A DNA stretch of 37,492 bases from Promethearchaeota archaeon (GCA_030599585.1 JAUVNS010000029.1:1-37492); one strand, 5' to 3'; shown: positions 23,963 to 31,957, counted from the stretch's first letter. The notes: generated by a model from the sequence alone, not told the origin. Translations and numbers: made by a program.

Positions 23963-25351
23963 TTAGTTCTTAAATCCGCACTTAGGACAAGTAGAAATAC
24001 CTCTTAAAGTTAAACCACACATCTTACACAATTTAATAGTACTTCTTCTTGGGGGTTTCAGGGTAGTTATAGAAATCTTTTCTTTAGCTTGAGTGGAACC
24101 GTCTGATTCCCTTATTATTGTTTCAGTTGCTGATGGAAGCAGATTTCCTTTTAATTCATTTTTTTCAACGGCTATCTCCTGTCCAAAATACCCTCCAACT
24201 CTAACTTTTTTAGTGGGGAGAGATTCTTGTGGAATTTGGTTTAAACTTGGAGGGGTTTTAAGAGTTTCAGGATTTAATATTCCTTCGCCTATTGTTAATT
24301 TTTGGTCTCCTTCATCATAAGTAGTTTCATCGATAGTTTGGACTTCAGGAATATCCGTTTCAACTGCCCTGCTTATGATCTCTTCGTCCTCTATATCTTG
24401 TTCCACTTGCACTACTTCCTCCGCGTATTCTTCTTCATAAATCATTTCTACGTAATCTTCGTCGAGTTTTAAGAGTGTATCGCATTGAATGCATCTAAAT
24501 AGGTGTTTAAAACCTATATTATTTGATATTGAATAATCTGCAGCACAACACGTATGATATTTGGCATCACAATTAAAACACTTGTGAACTTCGTCGGAAT
24601 AAGCACTGCAAATGGGACATACTTCTTTTTCGCAAATGTCACATTTTTCTTCATCATCGGGATCAAGCGAAATCAAATCTACTGCTAATTTTTCGTAAAA
24701 GATTTTATCTTCATCAAGAATTTGATTATCTGATTCAGGATGAACCACATTAAATTCTGATCGATTTTGCATTAATGACGTGATTATGTTTAAAAAAGAT
24801 TTTCCTTCGTTACAATAAAGAACTCCCCCATGAGTTTCGCTCGTAACCACTTTCAATTTTACATCATCGTCGTAGAACTTTTGATCTCCTACGCGAATAA
24901 CATCAATAAATGTATCAAATTTCTTAGCTTTGAGTAGTAGATCGTAAAGAGCATTGTGATAATCGTCAGACAAGGTGCTAGGTGTGTCTGAAATTATTAT
25001 TATTCTATAATTTTTTCGAGCATCTCGACTTTTTCTAAAAATGTAAGCTAATATCTCGAATAACCCATTTTCAAATAAACTTCTCTCAGTTTCTCGAGTC
25101 TCCCATTTTTCTTCTAATACCTTTTCATACGATTCAAAATCATTTTCATCGTAAAGAGTCACAGGATTATCATCTTTTTGGAATATTAAGAGCCCATAGG
25201 AAGTTTGAGTGTTGAATTTAGCTTTTTCCTTCATGAAAGTAGTAATACTCTTAATAAGATTCTTTTTCTTTAAAAAATCTGTTACGAGATCAACATAAAA
25301 AATAAATTCTTCAGAATTCACTGACTTTTTCTTAAACATCTTATGTTCCAA
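23963..25351 (-). CDS. vWA-domain + PHD/RING-like zinc finger + C-terminal zinc ribbon protein (paralogue 2)
   Basis: N-terminal alpha/beta vWA-like region (FYVDL, YGLLIF, FENGL, RIIIISDTP, FIDVIRVG, SETHGG); CDIC-x4-CPIC-x9-CFNC-x4-HTCC...CIQC; acidic linker; CKMC-x8-CPKC at the C-terminus. Confidence 0.8.
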   Translation of the reverse strand: MEHKMFKKKSVNSEEFIFYVDLVTDFLKKKNLIKSITTFMKEKAKFNTQTSYGLLIFQKDDNPVTLYDENDFESYEKVLEEKWETRETERSLFENGLFEILAYIFRKSRDARKNYRIIIISDTPSTLSDDYHNALYDLLLKAKKFDTFIDVIRVGDQKFYDDDVKLKVVTSETHGGVLYCNEGKSFLNIITSLMQNRSEFNVVHPESDNQILDEDKIFYEKLAVDLISLDPDDEEKCDICEKEVCPICSAYSDEVHKCFNCDAKYHTCCAADYSISNNIGFKHLFRCIQCDTLLKLDEDYVEMIYEEEYAEEVVQVEQDIEDEEIISRAVETDIPEVQTIDETTYDEGDQKLTIGEGILNPETLKTPPSLNQIPQESLPTKKVRVGGYFGQEIAVEKNELKGNLLPSATETIIRESDGSTQAKEKISITTLKPPRRSTIKLCKMCGLTLRGISTCPKCGFKN

Positions 25352-25480
25352 GCGAAATATAAATTATATCCAAAATCAAAGTTAATTATATACACAATAA
25401 TAAGAGATTTTTTATTTATTTTTATTGATTACAATAAATATAAGAATTTTTAAATTGCTTAAAGAGAGTATAATTCGAAA

Positions 25481-26851
25481 TTAAGAATCAAGTTTGAATC
25501 CACAATAGGAACATGATTGTTTATCTATATCTTTCTCTTTTAATTGCCTTCCGCATCCAGGACAATTTATAAAAGTAGGTCTTTTTCGATTCTCAGAAGG
25601 GCTCCAGAATTTTGGAATTTCCGGTTTTTTAAGATTAAGTGGTGCTGTGGAATTGGTCTCTTTAACATCTGCGTGGTGAGAATTTTTATTGTTATTGAGA
25701 GAACTAACTTTTTCATACACTAGTTTATCACCTTCCTTTTTCATAGTGTACGTCTTTCCAAAAAACCCTCCAATCCTTACTTTTTGAGTACCTTGATTGG
25801 ATACTTCTGTACTTGTAGAAGCATCAACATCAATAGGTTCAGGTTCAGGTTCAGGAATACTAGCAACTTCATCTAGATCCATGCTTTCTTCTTCAGATTC
25901 TAAATATTCATCAATTGTTTCGACGGTATCCTCAAAAGGTGTTACAATTTCGTCTTGTCTAATTTTTAATAGAATTTCACATTTGGGACATCGAAAAATA
26001 TGAGGGATCCCAATATTATTCTGAATCGTATAATTAGTCACGCAACAATTATGAAATGCAGCTCCACATCCTTCACAAAGTTGCAAAGTATCGTTTATAT
26101 CGGCGCAACATGGGCATATTTCTTCTTGGCAAAGATGACATTTCAAACCAACATCATCGGTTTGCGAGGGTTTTAAACTCTTCGCTAAATTAGAATAAAA
26201 ATCGTAATCATCTTTGTGTATTTTAATTTTTTCTGATTTATCCACGAATAAATTAACAATTAGTTTTGTTTTGGTTAATTTCTTAATAATCGACAAAAAA
26301 TCTTTCTTTTCTGAGAGATAAAATATCCCTCCATTCGTGTCACTAGAGAGAATGTTTAATTTAACATCATCTTTAAAGAATCGTTCTTCTTTCTCTGAGA
26401 CTCGTATGATATCTATAAATGTTGGTATAACTTTTATTTTTGAAACTAAACCAAATAGTGCTTCTGTATAATCTTCAGATAGATCACTTGGTGTATCAGT
26501 AATTATGATTATTCTGTTATGCCTTGATTTTTTCTTTATGGACTCTGCGATATACGAGAAGATATAAAATAAACCGTTTTCAAAAAAGGATTGCTTTTTT
26601 GGGCGGGATTTCCAATTTTCTTCAATAGCATTTTCTATAATGCTAGAGTCTTTTTTATCAGTTATAAAAATTGGATTTCCTTCTTCTTGGAATATTAGTA
26701 AACCATAATGTCCTTTAATGTTGGTTTTGTTCTTCTCCGATATATAAAATTTTATGGCTTTGGAAACTTCCTTCTTCTTCAAAATGTCTTTAGCTAAATC
26801 TAAGTAGAAAAAAACATCTTCGTGCGGGCTCATAATGATTTTGAATAGCAA
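25481..26851 (-). CDS. vWA-domain + PHD/RING-like zinc finger + C-terminal zinc ribbon protein (paralogue 1)
   Basis: Collinear with the downstream gene: FYLDL, YGLLIFQ, FFENGLF, RIIIITDTPSDLS, FIDIIRV, SDTNGG; CHLC-x4-CPCC-x9-CEGC-x4-HNCC...CPKC; CPGC..CSYC tail. Start may be the ATG of MSPHED. Confidence 0.8.
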   Translation of the reverse strand: MLFKIIMSPHEDVFFYLDLAKDILKKKEVSKAIKFYISEKNKTNIKGHYGLLIFQEEGNPIFITDKKDSSIIENAIEENWKSRPKKQSFFENGLFYIFSYIAESIKKKSRHNRIIIITDTPSDLSEDYTEALFGLVSKIKVIPTFIDIIRVSEKEERFFKDDVKLNILSSDTNGGIFYLSEKKDFLSIIKKLTKTKLIVNLFVDKSEKIKIHKDDYDFYSNLAKSLKPSQTDDVGLKCHLCQEEICPCCADINDTLQLCEGCGAAFHNCCVTNYTIQNNIGIPHIFRCPKCEILLKIRQDEIVTPFEDTVETIDEYLESEEESMDLDEVASIPEPEPEPIDVDASTSTEVSNQGTQKVRIGGFFGKTYTMKKEGDKLVYEKVSSLNNNKNSHHADVKETNSTAPLNLKKPEIPKFWSPSENRKRPTFINCPGCGRQLKEKDIDKQSCSYCGFKLDS

Positions 26852-26928: not shown

Positions 26929-28950
26929 TTGTATATATTATTAAAAAGAAAAAGGAATGAGCTTAAAATGGAAGAATTTTTAAAAAACTTTCAACTTTCA
27001 GATAACGCTATTAAATTATATATTAAATGCCTTGGTCAACAGCCCTTATCATCGTCTGAACTCTATTCTTTTTTACCAAATATATCTCAAGAAGATTTTA
27101 ATAAAGTATTAGAAGACATCATTGATAACGGTTTATTTATTCCAAATTCCAATCAAAATCTAGGTATTTTGCAGTACTTAGCAATCCCGCCAATAAAACC
27201 TGTATTAAATTATTATGAAAACATAAACAATAATCTACCTAGCATTAAAAAACAATTACAAATTCTACTCTCAAAATCTTTAGCGACAATTTTCCAAGAT
27301 AATCAAATAATTGAATTGGATACGGTGTATGATGCAGCGCAAGAATTAAGAAAAGATGTGGAAGAAGATGTTATCATCCAGAAACAAGATATTGATGATA
27401 TTGTACAAGGAATGGAAAATTTAAAAGCTATAAAGGATGTATTGGAGAACTTACGTCAAACAATCAAGGGAGTAACTCAGACTCAATTTTCATCGTTAAT
27501 CAAACTAATTGCCAATATTAAAAATGATATTTATAGTAAAATTGAGAGTTTAGAGTTAAAAAAATCAGAGAAGGCTGTAAAAGAAATAGTAGAAGAAGCC
27601 TTTAAGGAAAATTTTAATAAATTGCTTGGAGATTTTACCGCCAACTTACACAAATTGATTGGAGACGAGTTTGCTAATACAATCGAGTCGCTTAACAATA
27701 TTCTTAATTCCACATTTCGATTTCGAGACGATTTTCAGATGGTATTACTTAACATGCTGTCTACAAATGAAAAAAAGATTAAAAAGATAATTGAACTGAT
27801 CACATCTAAGAAAAAGCTCTTAGAAAGTGACCTAAAGGAGTTCGAAAAAACAATAATAGATAATTTCACCGAAATAATAGGAAAATCCGTCGATTCGGTG
27901 TCATCACTAAACGAACCAATCAATAATACTTTAGATAGTTATTATAATATAATTAAAGAATCAATGGAGCAAGAATCCGATAACTTCTGGCAAATCAAAA
28001 ACATAATAAGAGCAAAAGAAGAAATAAAGAAGATTATTTCTCAATCTACTCAAAGCCTATTAGTAGTTGTTCCAAAATTAGAAGAAAATCTTTCATTCGA
28101 TGATTTTAAAGATAAATCAAGTACTACTAAAATTCAAATTGCTTCCTCAGAAGCTCATACAAATAGCCTCGTTAAAAAATATAAAGATCTAAAAATTTTT
28201 GAATATCGAAATCTTAAAAACGATAGTGTTATCATTTGTAAGGGGGACGATGATAGCCTTATAATTGGTATTATAGATATGGAATTAAAAAACTACTCAG
28301 ATAATTTTATTGGTTTTGCTTCAAAAAACAAATCACTAATAAAGTTGTTCCAATTTGTTGTTAAAGCGATATGGGATATTGGTAGCTCGAGTTTACAGGA
28401 AACCCCTAGAACTCTTAATATTACAGTCCCAAAAAAGGACAGCGTTTCAAAAACCTCAATAACCACAAAAGTATCTAAACCTGTTAGACCATCTCCGATA
28501 AAAACACCGATAAAAACTACTCCTACCCTGATAACTAAAAAACCAGTAATTAATCAAGTTAAAAAACAAAAAGCTATATCCTCGGAAGGTAAAATTGCTC
28601 ATTTAGCTGAAGAACTCAACAACAAAATCAAAGAACCTAAAAAAGCACGTGAATCTAGCCAAACACCAAAATTCACTGAAGAACCAAAGGAATTCGATGA
28701 ATCTGGCATTGTAATAAATAACGCGTTTAAGGATTTAATCAAAAAGCTACATAAGATTAAAGGTGATGAATTTAGTAAAGAAATGGCGATCATCGCAGAT
28801 TTAATTTTAGAGAAAAAAGGATTTAGTGTGACCCTTCACAAGATTAGAAGCAAAATCAACCAATATAAAAATCACATGAGTCATTTAAACGATGTAGATA
28901 TTAGTCACATTATTGAAAGTATTGAAGAATGGAAGGAACGCATCTTATAG
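26929..28950 (+). CDS. TrmB-like winged-HTH protein with long helical/coiled-coil insert and TrmB/PLD-like C-terminal domain
   Basis: FL..FQLS....KLY...L....LS..EL......S...F..VL..I...GL...YLAIPP (TrmB-type HTH); ~250 aa amphipathic helical region; EEIKKII..S.QSLLVVVP (TrmB effector/PLD-like start); K/T/P-rich linker; helical C-terminus. Likely ATG at 26968. Confidence 0.65.
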   Translation: MYILLKRKRNELKMEEFLKNFQLSDNAIKLYIKCLGQQPLSSSELYSFLPNISQEDFNKVLEDIIDNGLFIPNSNQNLGILQYLAIPPIKPVLNYYENINNNLPSIKKQLQILLSKSLATIFQDNQIIELDTVYDAAQELRKDVEEDVIIQKQDIDDIVQGMENLKAIKDVLENLRQTIKGVTQTQFSSLIKLIANIKNDIYSKIESLELKKSEKAVKEIVEEAFKENFNKLLGDFTANLHKLIGDEFANTIESLNNILNSTFRFRDDFQMVLLNMLSTNEKKIKKIIELITSKKKLLESDLKEFEKTIIDNFTEIIGKSVDSVSSLNEPINNTLDSYYNIIKESMEQESDNFWQIKNIIRAKEEIKKIISQSTQSLLVVVPKLEENLSFDDFKDKSSTTKIQIASSEAHTNSLVKKYKDLKIFEYRNLKNDSVIICKGDDDSLIIGIIDMELKNYSDNFIGFASKNKSLIKLFQFVVKAIWDIGSSSLQETPRTLNITVPKKDSVSKTSITTKVSKPVRPSPIKTPIKTTPTLITKKPVINQVKKQKAISSEGKIAHLAEELNNKIKEPKKARESSQTPKFTEEPKEFDESGIVINNAFKDLIKKLHKIKGDEFSKEMAIIADLILEKKGFSVTLHKIRSKINQYKNHMSHLNDVDISHIIESIEEWKERIL

Positions 28951-28990: not shown

Positions 28991-29776
28991 TTAATCTGAT
29001 TTTGTGTTTTTCCTTTTGGCTAGAAAGTTTATCAAAAAGGAGTGAAAGAGCGTCCAAACAAACAATATAAGAAATAATATCAAAAAAATAATTGCTACGG
29101 TCATTGATACAATAAAATTGGGATTCAATATACCAATGATGCCAAAAATCGGAGAGAGTGGAGCTAAAACAATAAAAACGTAATATACAATTTTCCCTTT
29201 TTCGCCAAATTTAATGTGCGTAGTTATATTTAACCAGCCAATGAAAATTAGTAGAAAGGGTACAAGGTAATAAGTTATATCCAAGAAAGGATAGGTTAAA
29301 CCACCCAATGCAAACGCGTAGAAATAATTTATATAGAAGAAACCTATCATTAAAAGACAACTTACAGGTGTGGGTACACCCGTATATCCAGGATCTTCGA
29401 GAATATTAAATCTAGCTAACCTTAACACTGCTCCTAAGGCGAAGCATATACATGCGATTATAAGGATAAAATCGTAGATTGTTCCAGTTTTGAACGCTTG
29501 AAAGGACAAGATTGCTGGAACAATACCGAACGTCAAAGAATCGCTTAAAGAATCTAATTCTCTGCCCATATCGTTTACAGTTCCCGTTTTTCTTGCGATA
29601 TATCCATCAATGAGATCGGTACCTAAAGTAATTGAGATTAGAAAGAAGCCTAAGGAAATAGCATCTCTCGTTCCAAATGAGCCACAAATTAGCGCAATAA
29701 TTCCTATCGTGGTCCCTATAAGCGTTACATAATCTTTAATTTTTAATAAACTTGGTATCGTTGTTTTTGTTGACAA
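28991..29776 (-). CDS. pssA: CDP-alcohol phosphatidyltransferase, archaetidylserine/phosphatidylserine synthase type
   Basis: DLIDGYIARK.....MGRELDSLSDSLTFGIVPA signature, LRLARFN, YTGVPTP; multiple TMs. Confidence 0.85.
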   Translation of the reverse strand: MSTKTTIPSLLKIKDYVTLIGTTIGIIALICGSFGTRDAISLGFFLISITLGTDLIDGYIARKTGTVNDMGRELDSLSDSLTFGIVPAILSFQAFKTGTIYDFILIIACICFALGAVLRLARFNILEDPGYTGVPTPVSCLLMIGFFYINYFYAFALGGLTYPFLDITYYLVPFLLIFIGWLNITTHIKFGEKGKIVYYVFIVLAPLSPIFGIIGILNPNFIVSMTVAIIFLILFLILFVWTLFHSFLINFLAKRKNTKSD

Positions 29777-29912
29777 TTTTTTCCCACTTCGTTATTATAC
29801 TATAATTAAAATCTTAGTTTAATTAAAACATTTCTTTATAATGCAAGTCGGGATTCCAACCTATCCTTACATTTATTAGACTAAGTTGATTATTGATGAT
29901 TAAAATAAAATA

Positions 29913-30704
29913 TTGAAAATTGTAAAAAAGGTTGATTTTGTGAGCTGTCCTAATTGTGGAGATCCGATTGACGAGAATCAAAAATTCTGCGAGAAATGTG
30001 GAGCAGAATTGAGATCGGTAAAAAAAACACCCGAAAAAGGTGAAAAAATTAGTTTAACCTCTTCTCCATCTCAAACACCCATAGGTAGTGCTAATTTGTT
30101 TGATATAAACCGGAATTATTACATAATTAAAGAACGCATGTGGGATATGGGATTTGGAGATATAATGGATGAGGAGGGAAAACTTATAGGGAAAATGCAT
30201 AGAATCCTTCTAAGCATAAGGAGAAGAGTTGAACTCCAAGAACTTGATGGCACCGTTGTTGCCACTATTCACAGTAAAATAGTTTCTGCCCGGGGTGCCC
30301 AAGATTTAAAAACCCCTGATGGAGAACTTATCGCCAGAATTAAAAAGAAAATATTAACATTCTTTAAGTCGAAATTCTTTTTGGAAGACCCTATGGGAAA
30401 TCGATGGTATGAAGCTGATGGAGACTTTTTTGGCTGGTCGTTTAAAATCTATGATGTAAATACTGGAAAATTAGTAGCAGAAATAGAAAAAGCCGACCGT
30501 TGGCGAGATGTCTTCTTAGGCGGAATTTTTGATTTTGCTGATAATTACGCCCTGAGAATTCTAGACAATGAGACCGACAGAAGGATATTAGTAGGATTCG
30601 TGTTATCAATTGATAATGTGATGCACGATTCGGGTGGAATGGGAGGTATGATGGGTGGAATGGGTCGCCGCCGTGGTCCTTTTGGAATGCCTCGTCGTAG
30701 ATAA
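29913..30704 (+). CDS. Zinc-ribbon + LURP-one/Tubby-C/scramblase-fold protein with GGM tail
   Basis: CPNCG-x7-FCEKCG; repeated I.D..G..(I/V)A.I.KK units; GDFFGWSFKI.D...VAEI.K; DNYALRI...D.RILVGFVLSID terminal helix. Confidence 0.78.
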   Translation: MKIVKKVDFVSCPNCGDPIDENQKFCEKCGAELRSVKKTPEKGEKISLTSSPSQTPIGSANLFDINRNYYIIKERMWDMGFGDIMDEEGKLIGKMHRILLSIRRRVELQELDGTVVATIHSKIVSARGAQDLKTPDGELIARIKKKILTFFKSKFFLEDPMGNRWYEADGDFFGWSFKIYDVNTGKLVAEIEKADRWRDVFLGGIFDFADNYALRILDNETDRRILVGFVLSIDNVMHDSGGMGGMMGGMGRRRGPFGMPRRR

Positions 30705-30753
30705 TGGTTTAAAAGTCTCTATATAAAAATAATTTCTATCTTTTTTTGAATTT

Positions 30754-31245
30754 TTATAGCTTTTTTCCACAGTTTTTGCAAAATTGCCAACTATAAGAAA
30801 TCTCTTCACCGCATTTTGTACATTTATTAGAGACAGGTTTTACCTTATAATCATCAACATTCTGTGTGTTTTTACTTGTTTTATTCGCGAGTAATACCGT
30901 TGAATTTATCATTTCACTTAAATTGATACTTTCTAAGCGGCCAATACTTCTGTTATTCGCCATAGTTATAGAAAACAAAAGACCGTCCCTGGTTTCAACG
31001 ACTACAACGTAAATTTTTTGGATTTTAGCGCTATAGGCTTTTTTAATTTGAGTTAAAGGAATTACAAAACCATCTTTATAATTATCAACTGAGGAACCCC
31101 TTTCAGTAAGGTTTATATTTGATTTTTTTACAAGTGAAAGTTCTATTGCTGATAAAACGATTCTTCCATATTCCATACTAAACTTCCAGTTTTTTACTAC
31201 TTCCCCTTCGCAAAAATAACCTTCGGTACTATATACTAACGCCAT
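30754..31245 (-). CDS. Putative PH/GRAM-like beta domain + C-terminal zinc ribbon protein
   Basis: G.IVLS..EL.LV, F.IPL.QIKK, beta strands then a terminal helix (PH-like pattern, tentative); CTKCG-x7-FCKNCG.KL. Confidence 0.6.
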   Translation of the reverse strand: MALVYSTEGYFCEGEVVKNWKFSMEYGRIVLSAIELSLVKKSNINLTERGSSVDNYKDGFVIPLTQIKKAYSAKIQKIYVVVVETRDGLLFSITMANNRSIGRLESINLSEMINSTVLLANKTSKNTQNVDDYKVKPVSNKCTKCGEEISYSWQFCKNCGKKL

Positions 31246-31417
31246 TTTTTTTTATTTTCTTTTTTATATTTTTTGTCTTATTCTTAGTTTCTTATTTTAT
31301 ATGTGTACTACCGTATTAATAAGTCTAGTAGTCCAATTTTTAAAAAGAGCAAAAATTTTTATAGCTATAATTTGATTATACCTTTAAAACCTTATATAAA
31401 GAAAAAGAGAGAAAAAT

Positions 31418-31957
31418 ATGTCGCTTCAAAAAACACGAGAATTTATGCTTAATGAGAAAATGATTTCTTTGACGGACAAGGGTGAGATCAGGAATTTAGA
31501 CAACGAATTACTAGGGACTTTTAGAGGAAAGTTAATAAAGATCGGTAATACCTACAGGATAAGAGATCTTGACGAGGTTCCCATATTGACAGTTGCAGAA
31601 AAGATAATCTCTCTTCGCTCATCTTATAAATTTTATAGAGGAGGGGAGAAAGAGGACGATAAATTAATTGGGCAGCTAAAAAGAAAGCTTGTATCCATTA
31701 AGCCTAGTTATTGGTTTGAGGATCCTAACGAGAATAAAGTTTTCACAATGAAGGGAAACCTCATGACGCTTAAATTCAAGATTTTAAAAGACGGCCAGGA
31801 AGTCGCCGAAATACGAAAAAAGTTATGGAAAAGTCTCCTAAAGAATACGTTTGGAATTAAAATGGCTCCAGATCTTGACGACGAATCCGCAATGCTTATC
31901 CTTGGCATAGTCATCATGCTCCACCACGAAAAAGAGGAAAATAGGAAAAGACGTTAA
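31418..31957 (+). CDS. LURP-one/Tubby-C/scramblase-fold protein
   Basis: F.LNEKMISL.D...I.......LG...GK, I.D.DE..IL...EK.ISL...Y, GNL....F.I...GQEVAEI.KK, TFGI....D.D...LILGIVI.L pattern of YxjI/LURP proteins. Confidence 0.8.
   Translation: MSLQKTREFMLNEKMISLTDKGEIRNLDNELLGTFRGKLIKIGNTYRIRDLDEVPILTVAEKIISLRSSYKFYRGGEKEDDKLIGQLKRKLVSIKPSYWFEDPNENKVFTMKGNLMTLKFKILKDGQEVAEIRKKLWKSLLKNTFGIKMAPDLDDESAMLILGIVIMLHHEKEENRKRR

Follow-up and report, generated by a model that had tools for sequence, protein, structure and literature searches.

A tandem pair of MIDAS-less vWA-RING paralogues in Lokiarchaeia as a candidate scaffold of the ubiquitin-ligase type

What is the role of two adjacent paralogous genes, here called A (P0001) and B (P0002), that lie on a contig of a Promethearchaeota archaeon (GCA_030599585.1 JAUVNS010000029.1:1-37492) and combine a vWA domain with zinc fingers? 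In eukaryotes, subunits with a vWA domain and a RING or other zinc finger are at the core of large machines, i.e. TFIIH, the lid and base of the proteasome, and COPII. The window, by which we mean the whole analysed stretch of 37,492 nucleotides (nt), is low-GC DNA with a GC content of ~33%. The domain architecture and predicted structures point to A and B acting jointly as a ubiquitin-ligase-like scaffold or adaptor with a vWA-RING architecture, a reading to which we give about an even chance. Literature searches on Asgard vWA, RING, Ssl1 or TFIIH proteins found no paper on the A/B family, which the initial annotation of the locus had likewise taken to be undescribed.

Architecture of the gene pair

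Gene A covers 23963..25339 on the minus strand and encodes 458 amino acids (aa) from an ATG at 25339; gene B covers 25481..26833 on the same strand and encodes 450 aa from an ATG at 26833. Both are vWA-RING-zinc ribbon proteins. The longest open reading frames (ORFs) extend further upstream, to a TTG at 25351 for A (23963-25351, 462 aa) and a TTG at 26851 for B (25481-26851, 456 aa). All orthologues begin at the downstream ATG, with MFKK in A (orthologues of 55-98% identity) and MSPHED in B. Because of these orthologue starts, ATG 25339 and ATG 26833 are probably the true starts, which makes the genes 12 and 18 nt shorter than the TTG ORFs. Thus, both genes were confirmed as annotated, except that the upstream TTG starts had to be replaced. 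The spacer from the stop of B to ATG 25339 of A is AT-rich and 141 nt long.

A BLASTP comparison of A with B gave 35% identity over the full length with an E of 1e-86, far beyond chance. A and B are full-length paralogues and cytosolic. The motifs YGLLIFQ, FENGLF, RIIII(S/T)DTPS, DDVKL and NNIG..H.FRC, which the initial annotation had quoted as shared, were all found in both proteins, and its description of two adjacent, co-directional paralogous genes was correct. Neither protein matched a family of Pfam or NCBIfam above cut-off. The order along both chains is a vWA domain lacking the metal-ion-dependent adhesion site (MIDAS), a RING/PHD-type finger, an acidic flexible linker, a GG(Y/F)FG hairpin and a zinc ribbon.

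The N-terminal vWA domain

Residues 5-302 of A were modelled by AlphaFold2 with an alignment of 32 sequences. The model had a mean predicted local distance difference test score (pLDDT) of 79.7, with blocks of ~88-94 over most of the N-terminal domain (residues ~10-200; 24752..25324, minus strand). The order of strands and helices was that of a vWA domain with its Rossmann-like alpha/beta fold. Foldseek retrieved 422 matches from the PDB at E<=0.001, and all listed ones were vWA-containing chains. VIA structure comparisons yielded Z values of 14-19 over 170-186 residues. Taken together, the fold predicted for the N-terminal domain is with certainty that of a vWA domain. A profile of the N-terminal 300 residues searched against PDB sequences gave weak PHD/RING matches only (E ~0.1) and no vWA chain. 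The vWA domain of B (residues ~12-200; 26252..26818, minus strand) is collinear with that of A, and in profile A2 it is linked to vWA paralogues that bear a MIDAS.

The initial annotation had assigned the domain to a vWA subfamily of Rpn10, Ssl1, Tfb4 and MERIT40. The best Foldseek matches were p44 (8ebs_E) with an E of 2.8e-10 and Tfb4 (7o4k_4) with 3.2e-10, then p34 (9e-8) and Ssl1. Rpn10 followed the TFIIH chains (E ~2e-7 to 4e-7), with vWF A1, BatB and ArnAB next, while MERIT40 was absent among the matches listed. In VIA the model aligned with p44 at a Z of 18.9 over 184 residues with a root-mean-square deviation (rmsd) of 3.6. Ssl1 reached 18.5, and Rpn10 18.4 (8amz_W), 17.0 (8j4a_D) and 15.2 (3jco_W). 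The archaeal ArnB scored 18.4, ordinary vWA domains ~17, p34 (4pn7) 16.5 and the Sec23/24 trunk 15.8-16.2. In the model the leaning of the fold to p44, p34 and Rpn10 is real but narrow, and the subfamily call is soft because the Z values are nearly tied across vWA families.

As the initial annotation had noted, the MIDAS signature DxSxS is absent; in its place, the loop after the first strand has FYVDLVTD (A) or FYLDLAKD (B). Of the MIDAS residues, just D21 and D122 are kept, while MIDAS-bearing relatives read DxSRSM. Because the metal-binding serines are lost, the vWA domain is better seen as a docking module than as a metal-dependent adhesin.

The similarity of the modelled domain to the vWA of Rpn10 is real, and both would use the domain for protein docking. 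The pair might act as ubiquitin receptors like Rpn10 and MERIT40, or as subunits of a lid complex of the proteasome or JAMM type. The Foldseek and VIA values for Rpn10 are what speaks for this. On the other hand, Rpn10 carries ubiquitin-interacting motifs (UIMs), and A and B had no Pfam match to a UIM or any other ubiquitin-binding domain at E<=1. Moreover, no proteasome or JAMM gene is linked to the pair in the window, and MERIT40/BABAM1 did not appear among the fold matches listed, although its absence from these rows would not by itself decide the matter. We regard this as the least probable of the explanations considered here.

Archaeal ArnB is another docking vWA, which is paired with a zinc-finger protein, ArnA. 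The title of its PDB entry calls it an archaeal orthologue of the Sec23/24 core motif, and a theme of Sec23/24-like vWA plus zinc finger was described for ArnAB (PMC12852372). Yet, ArnAB has a beta-sandwich/helical domain and an FHA partner, and A and B are without these. The closest structural matches of ArnB outside archaea are the WAV3 E3 ligases, RING-vWA proteins of plants and fungi (PMC12852372). A and B are likened to such RING-vWA ligases solely by way of this ArnB comparison. The Sec23/Sec24 core of COPII was considered and rejected as a counterpart: only its trunk matched, its zinc finger is N-terminal while that of A and B follows the vWA domain, and the models show no additional folded domain.

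The RING/PHD-type finger

The finger of A comprises residues 233-298 (24458..24655, minus strand) with the ligand string C237-x2-C240-x4-C245-x2-C248-x9-C258-x2-C261-x4-H266-x-C268-C269-x17-C287-x2-C290. The same array is present in B (25955..26152, minus strand) as C238, C241, C246, C249, C259, C262, H267, C269/C270, C288 and C291. Among 66 family members C237, C240, C258, C261, H266, C287 and C290 were invariant, and C269 was replaced by His in one clade. The core spacing C-x2-C-x17-C-x2-C-x4-H-x2-C-x17-C-x2-C is that of a C4HC3 cross-brace, i.e. it has the ligand order of a PHD finger.

The initial annotation had described such a finger with an extra CxxC pair. The ligand string agreed with this description, and the family alignment identified the extra pair as the second CxxC, C245/C248, inside loop 1, because the remaining eight ligands are invariant across the wider family. 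C245 and C248 co-vary with C268 and D253, and the clade P0253-P0264 has lost the four residues together. This joint loss suggests a lineage-specific third zinc site made up of C245, C248, C268 and probably D253.

When modelled with the C-terminal half only, the finger reached a pLDDT of 93-97. In VIA the best match was the RING of FANCL with a Z of 6.6 over 62 residues and an rmsd of 2.4, followed by listerin (6.0), Deltex (5.9), APC11 (5.5), Nse1 (5.4) and Slx1 (5.0). The RING-like domain of p44 was also among the matches with a Z of 4.9; Ssl1 gave 4.3, and a third p44/Ssl1 value was 4.0. The RINGs of GATOR2 and the SEA complex scored 4.0-4.1. These values are modest in absolute terms because the domain has only ~65 residues. 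Among the best 50 VIA matches the leaders were RING or RING-like, and RING/PHD-type fingers predominated. Foldseek returned mostly RING, PHD and other zinc fingers (FYVE, C2H2) at non-significant E values of 0.08-0.7. A feature search of the protein atlas with the finger gave C1_4 as the best named cluster at 0.76, which is below a useful level.

Pfam matches were seen in part of the 66 family members: Prok-RING_1 in 20/66, PHD in 16/66, zf-RING_2 in 13/66 and zf-ANAPC11 in 4/66, with C1_1 as well. The relative P0282 exceeded the PHD cut-off with 26.1 versus 24 bits. The model, the VIA matches and the Pfam matches of relatives all agree with the earlier assignment of the finger as a cross-brace of the RING/PHD type.

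The finger shares the cross-brace and its eight ligands with the RING E3 domains of FANCL, listerin, Deltex, APC11/Rbx, Nse1 and Slx1 and with Prok-RING_1, at VIA Z values of 5.0-6.6 over 53-69 residues. It differs from them in the extra, probably third, zinc site in loop 1, the C4HC3 order and the lack of a basic residue after the last ligand.

A predicted adaptor of the ubiquitin-ligase type

How might such chains work? A and B would act together as a pair, as suggested by the tandem being strictly kept in one archaeal family (see below). A client or partner would be bound by the vWA face together with the C-terminal hairpin and ribbon. Two tasks are conceivable for the RING-type finger: it may bring in a charged ubiquitin-conjugating enzyme (E2) from the ubiquitin-like system of the host, or it may grip the other chain of the pair, much as p34 is clamped by the p44 RING in TFIIH. 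The host possesses the parts that an E3-like role would need, as its genome encodes two E2 genes (G000:C34:250463-250891 and C28:99420-99887) and ubiquitin-like genes (C47:25993-26184 and a cluster on C28). Should the pair prove to serve the ubiquitin-like system of archaea as a RING ligase or adaptor, it would offer an accessible model in which to study the origin of heteromeric E3 scaffolds.

Several points weigh against this reading. The E2 and ubiquitin-like genes are located on other contigs, and no gene of the ubiquitin system adjoins A or B. Binding of A to B, binding of an E2 and ligase activity are putative. RING E3s usually have a basic residue, the "linchpin", after the last zinc ligand. 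In the A/B family this residue is D, E or G, which makes a strongly activating RING less likely. The finger has the C4HC3 signature of a PHD and relatives match PHD and C1 models, so a non-catalytic binding role is equally compatible. Finally, a sister family of archaea manages with one copy, and so the heteromer would not be essential to the ancestral function. A complex prediction for A(5-302) and B(7-302), run without alignments, had a score of 0.00 and is evidence in neither direction.

In a broader version, a heteromeric RING ligase with three zinc sites, built on a vWA scaffold, would have evolved within Lokiarchaeia and would supply the ubiquitin-like system of these archaea with substrates, perhaps small GTPases or proteins of the cytoskeleton. 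The class-wide superfamily would then be the prokaryotic stock of the eukaryotic vWA subunits of the p44/p34/Rpn10 type. We consider this quite unlikely as a whole. As for the rivals of a ligase-type adaptor, their support falls in the order non-catalytic regulator, GTPase-linked adaptor, TFIIH-like helicase partner and Rpn10-like receptor.

MIDAS-bearing paralogues and the relation to p44 and p34

The same genome contains two unlinked genes, P0400 and P0401, for proteins of 389-399 aa with an intact DxSRSM (DxSxSM) motif. Databases name them "VWA domain-containing protein" or "YegL". They pass the Pfam models VWA, VWA_2 and Ssl1; for Ssl1 the scores were 41.5 and 36.2 bits, well over the cut-off of 27 bits. 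By hhalign, profile A2 matched P0400 and P0401 with a probability of 95.5-96% and E values of 1.6e-8 and 3.6e-9 over the vWA domain and the first finger. Homology thus covers both domains, and the finger spacing C-x2-C-x17-C-x2-C-x4-H-x2-C...C-x2-C and an FRCPxC..LLK tail are held in common. In contrast to A and B, P0400 and P0401 keep DxSRSM, pass Pfam VWA and Ssl1, and end in a second RING/PHD/C1-like finger instead of a ribbon. They are also unlinked single genes with a class-wide range, whereas A and B are a tandem of narrower range.

Ssl1 was matched above cut-off in 155/160 genomes of the class Lokiarchaeia; the other Asgard classes (0/239 genomes) and the control genomes (0/14) had no such match. 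Judged by these profiles, A and B are a diverged MIDAS-less offshoot of a vWA-RING superfamily found throughout Lokiarchaeia. One Asgard class has therefore built and duplicated a vWA-RING architecture, including a MIDAS-less pair that parallels p44 and p34.

This parallel raises the possibility that A and B are archaeal counterparts or even ancestors of p44/GTF2H2 (Ssl1) and p34/GTF2H3 (Tfb4), that is, a heterodimer which would sit on a helicase of the XPD type and regulate it. The likeness is considerable. Both systems have two paralogous chains with a vWA followed by zinc-binding domains, and p34, too, has no functional MIDAS. The leading Foldseek matches were p44, Tfb4, p34 and Ssl1 with alignments that extended into the finger, and the finger itself matched the p44/Ssl1 RINGs in VIA. 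Furthermore, the host genome has three XPD-like helicase genes.

Yet, these helicase genes are unlinked to A and B, and the vWA Z values are nearly tied with those of unrelated vWA families. Neither A nor B matched Pfam Ssl1 (PF04056) even at E<=1, and C1_4 (PF07975) and Tfb4 (PF03850) gave no match either. Across the genome Tfb4 scored highest on P0400, with 22.1 bits, which is short of the cut-off of 27 bits. Because P0400 and P0401 exceed the Ssl1 cut-off and keep DxSxSM, while A and B have no Ssl1 match, they are by sequence the nearer relatives of p44/Ssl1. The architectures differ as well: p44 has a C4 finger plus a RING, A and B have one RING-type finger plus a zinc ribbon, and the long acidic linker and the GG(Y/F)FG motif are their own. 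A and B are restricted to one archaeal order, Ssl1 matches among Asgard archaea are restricted to Lokiarchaeia, and both are absent from the 239 genomes of other Asgard classes. This range of one order, or of one class for the superfamily, cautions against reading A and B as direct ancestors of the eukaryotic complexes.

Moreover, in the best tree A and B separate later than the divergence of the host's family from its sister family, so the duplication would be independent of that of p44 and p34; the statistics given below leave an alternative. In their architecture and predicted fold A and B resemble p44 and p34, but orthology or ancestry is unsupported. The earlier proposal of an ancestral pair is weakened by four findings: the range is narrow, the duplication is probably lineage-specific, closer Ssl1-like paralogues exist and the fold scores are nearly tied. 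A role as TFIIH-like helicase partner is very improbable.

Distribution and age of the duplication

A database search found hundreds of close relatives, and nearly all named ones were labelled as Asgard archaea of the Loki/Promethearchaeota type, in agreement with the organism being a Loki-type Asgard archaeon. They are annotated as "hypothetical", "VWA domain-containing", "RING finger" or "DC1 domain-containing". An exhaustive profile search of 1.8 billion cluster representatives gave only 161 at E<=0.001, and the family is small on this account.

The profile was also run against 400 Asgard genomes. In the archaeal family of the window itself (f1) 129/134 genomes matched, and so did all genomes of its sister family f3 (14/14) and of f4 (4/4). 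In f2 and f5-f7, which belong to the same class as f1, there were weak matches only, probably to paralogues. No match was obtained in other Asgard classes (0/239 genomes). The A/B family is limited to one order of Lokiarchaeia, and the tandem pair to one family, f1, within that order.

The f1 genomes in which both copies were listed had them on one contig and one strand, ~1.5 kb apart (e.g. G237, G245, G188), and the order B then A was kept in orthologues at 58% identity. Among the closed f3 genomes, G143 and G135 had a single strong copy and G138 had two that are unlinked. Conservation of the pair in relatives, as originally expected, is thus strict in f1 and does not extend to these f3 genomes. 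A lack of such conservation had been named at the outset as a ground for refutation, and this ground applies in part.

In a maximum-likelihood tree rooted on the MIDAS-bearing paralogues, the Shimodaira-Hasegawa-like approximate likelihood-ratio test (SH-aLRT) gave 98 for the A clade and 99 for the B clade, and both were nested in a clade with a value of 96, outside which the f3 clade was placed. Because of this nesting, our best estimate from the tree is that the tandem duplication took place inside f1, after the split from f3. An approximately unbiased (AU) test of A plus f3 as one clade did not reject this alternative (p 0.162), so the timing relies on the best tree alone.

Two loci deviate from the usual arrangement. 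One relative with a single full-length copy (P0391) has a 249-aa ORF without a Pfam match at the place of gene B (L034:6102-6851), which could be a remnant. In G138 (L032:1880-8255) a gene for a PAN/Rpt-like proteasomal AAA ATPase is located upstream of the second copy, which is unlinked to the first; this ATPase gene is followed by ~5 kb without an ORF of at least 100 aa.

Linker, hairpin and C-terminal ribbon

In A the finger is followed by an acidic linker of residues 299-378 (24218..24457, minus strand) with alignment columns that vary in length and sequence and a pLDDT of 51-63. The prediction is a long helix directly after the finger and then a disordered acidic segment. Next is the motif KKVRVGGYFG, residues 381-395 (24167..24211, minus strand), which is predicted to be a beta-hairpin with a pLDDT of ~86. 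G386, G387, F389 and G390 were invariant in alignment A1, and the F was nearly invariant across clades. The motif QKVRIGGFFGK of B (25742..25786, minus strand) aligns with it, and the general form is K-x-V-R-x-G-G-(Y/F)-F-G.

The C-terminal zinc ribbon of A has the ligands C442, C445, C455 and C458 (23966..24034, minus strand; pLDDT 94-95). All four cysteines were invariant in 39 sequences, and the ribbons of relatives match Zn_Ribbon_1 and Zn_ribbon_3. In B the corresponding residues in the A/B alignment are C430, C433, C447 and C450 (25484..25573, minus strand), with a weak match to the UPF0547 zinc ribbon.

Neighbouring genes

Divergent from gene B is a gene for a protein of 673 aa at 26929-28950 on the plus strand, with a possible role as third component or regulator. 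It matched nothing in Pfam at E<=0.001 and noise only at E<=0.5. Strong orthologues were found in f1 only (129/134 genomes), where the gene adjoins gene B throughout, even at 33% identity. A functional link of this neighbour to the pair is a lead suggested by gene order. On the other hand, the adjacency may be inherited gene order, because the whole block with pssA, the LOR genes and the aminotransferase gene is syntenic.

The neighbour is part of the case for a non-catalytic scaffold or regulator. Here the finger and ribbon would bind protein or nucleic acid, and the pair would act with the 673-aa protein, which the initial annotation had called TrmB-like, in regulation of the transcription or chromatin type. 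The divergent gene kept beside B in f1, the tandem pair's restriction to this same family, and the PHD signature of the finger with the PHD and C1 matches of its relatives are in agreement with such a role. In addition, one relative of the neighbour had a weak TrmB match (E 0.0044). However, the neighbour itself had no Pfam match above noise (E<=0.5), the synteny of the block offers another reason for the adjacency, and in f3 the gene has other neighbours. Also, the structures that the finger resembles most are catalytic RINGs rather than PHD readers. A non-catalytic regulator is unlikely, though it is the best supported of the rivals to a ligase-type adaptor.

What are the other neighbours in f3? 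In three closed f3 genomes of three genera (L029:6074-7864, L030:8791-10829, L031:5394-7295) the gene next to the single-copy orthologue, in divergent orientation, encodes a Ras-family GTPase and is followed by an actin gene. P0400 (L003:814-3395, G000:C24) is divergent from a gene for an Arf/Gtr1-RagA-like GTPase of 401/402 aa, and the same was seen for two orthologues of ~60% identity (L037, L038). With it, there are two cases of vWA-RING genes that adjoin a small GTPase gene.

These loci would fit an adaptor for small GTPases, cytoskeleton or membrane traffic, in which the paralogous vWA plus zinc-finger chains act on a Ras/Arf/Rag-type GTPase in the manner of Sec23/24 or GATOR. The VIA values of the vWA model with the Sec23/24 trunk and ArnB, and of the finger with the GATOR2/SEA-complex RINGs, point in the same direction. 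Yet, no small GTPase is encoded beside A and B in the window or in f1 relatives, and the genes around the P0400 orthologues are syntenic too. Loki genomes contain very many small GTPases, and because of this richness a chance adjacency is not rare. Furthermore, the domain order is unlike that of Sec23/24, with a C-terminal finger and no beta-sandwich, helical or gelsolin domain. We consider a GTPase-linked adaptor decidedly improbable.

The flanks of the pair in the window are unrelated metabolic genes (an aminotransferase, a diaminopimelate (DAP) dehydrogenase-like protein, a CobW-type GTPase and pssA), which give no operon-type clue. The region 28991-31957 encodes a CDP-alcohol phosphatidyltransferase, LURP/scramblase-like zinc-ribbon proteins and a further zinc-ribbon protein, and is syntenic with the pair in relatives of ~60% identity.

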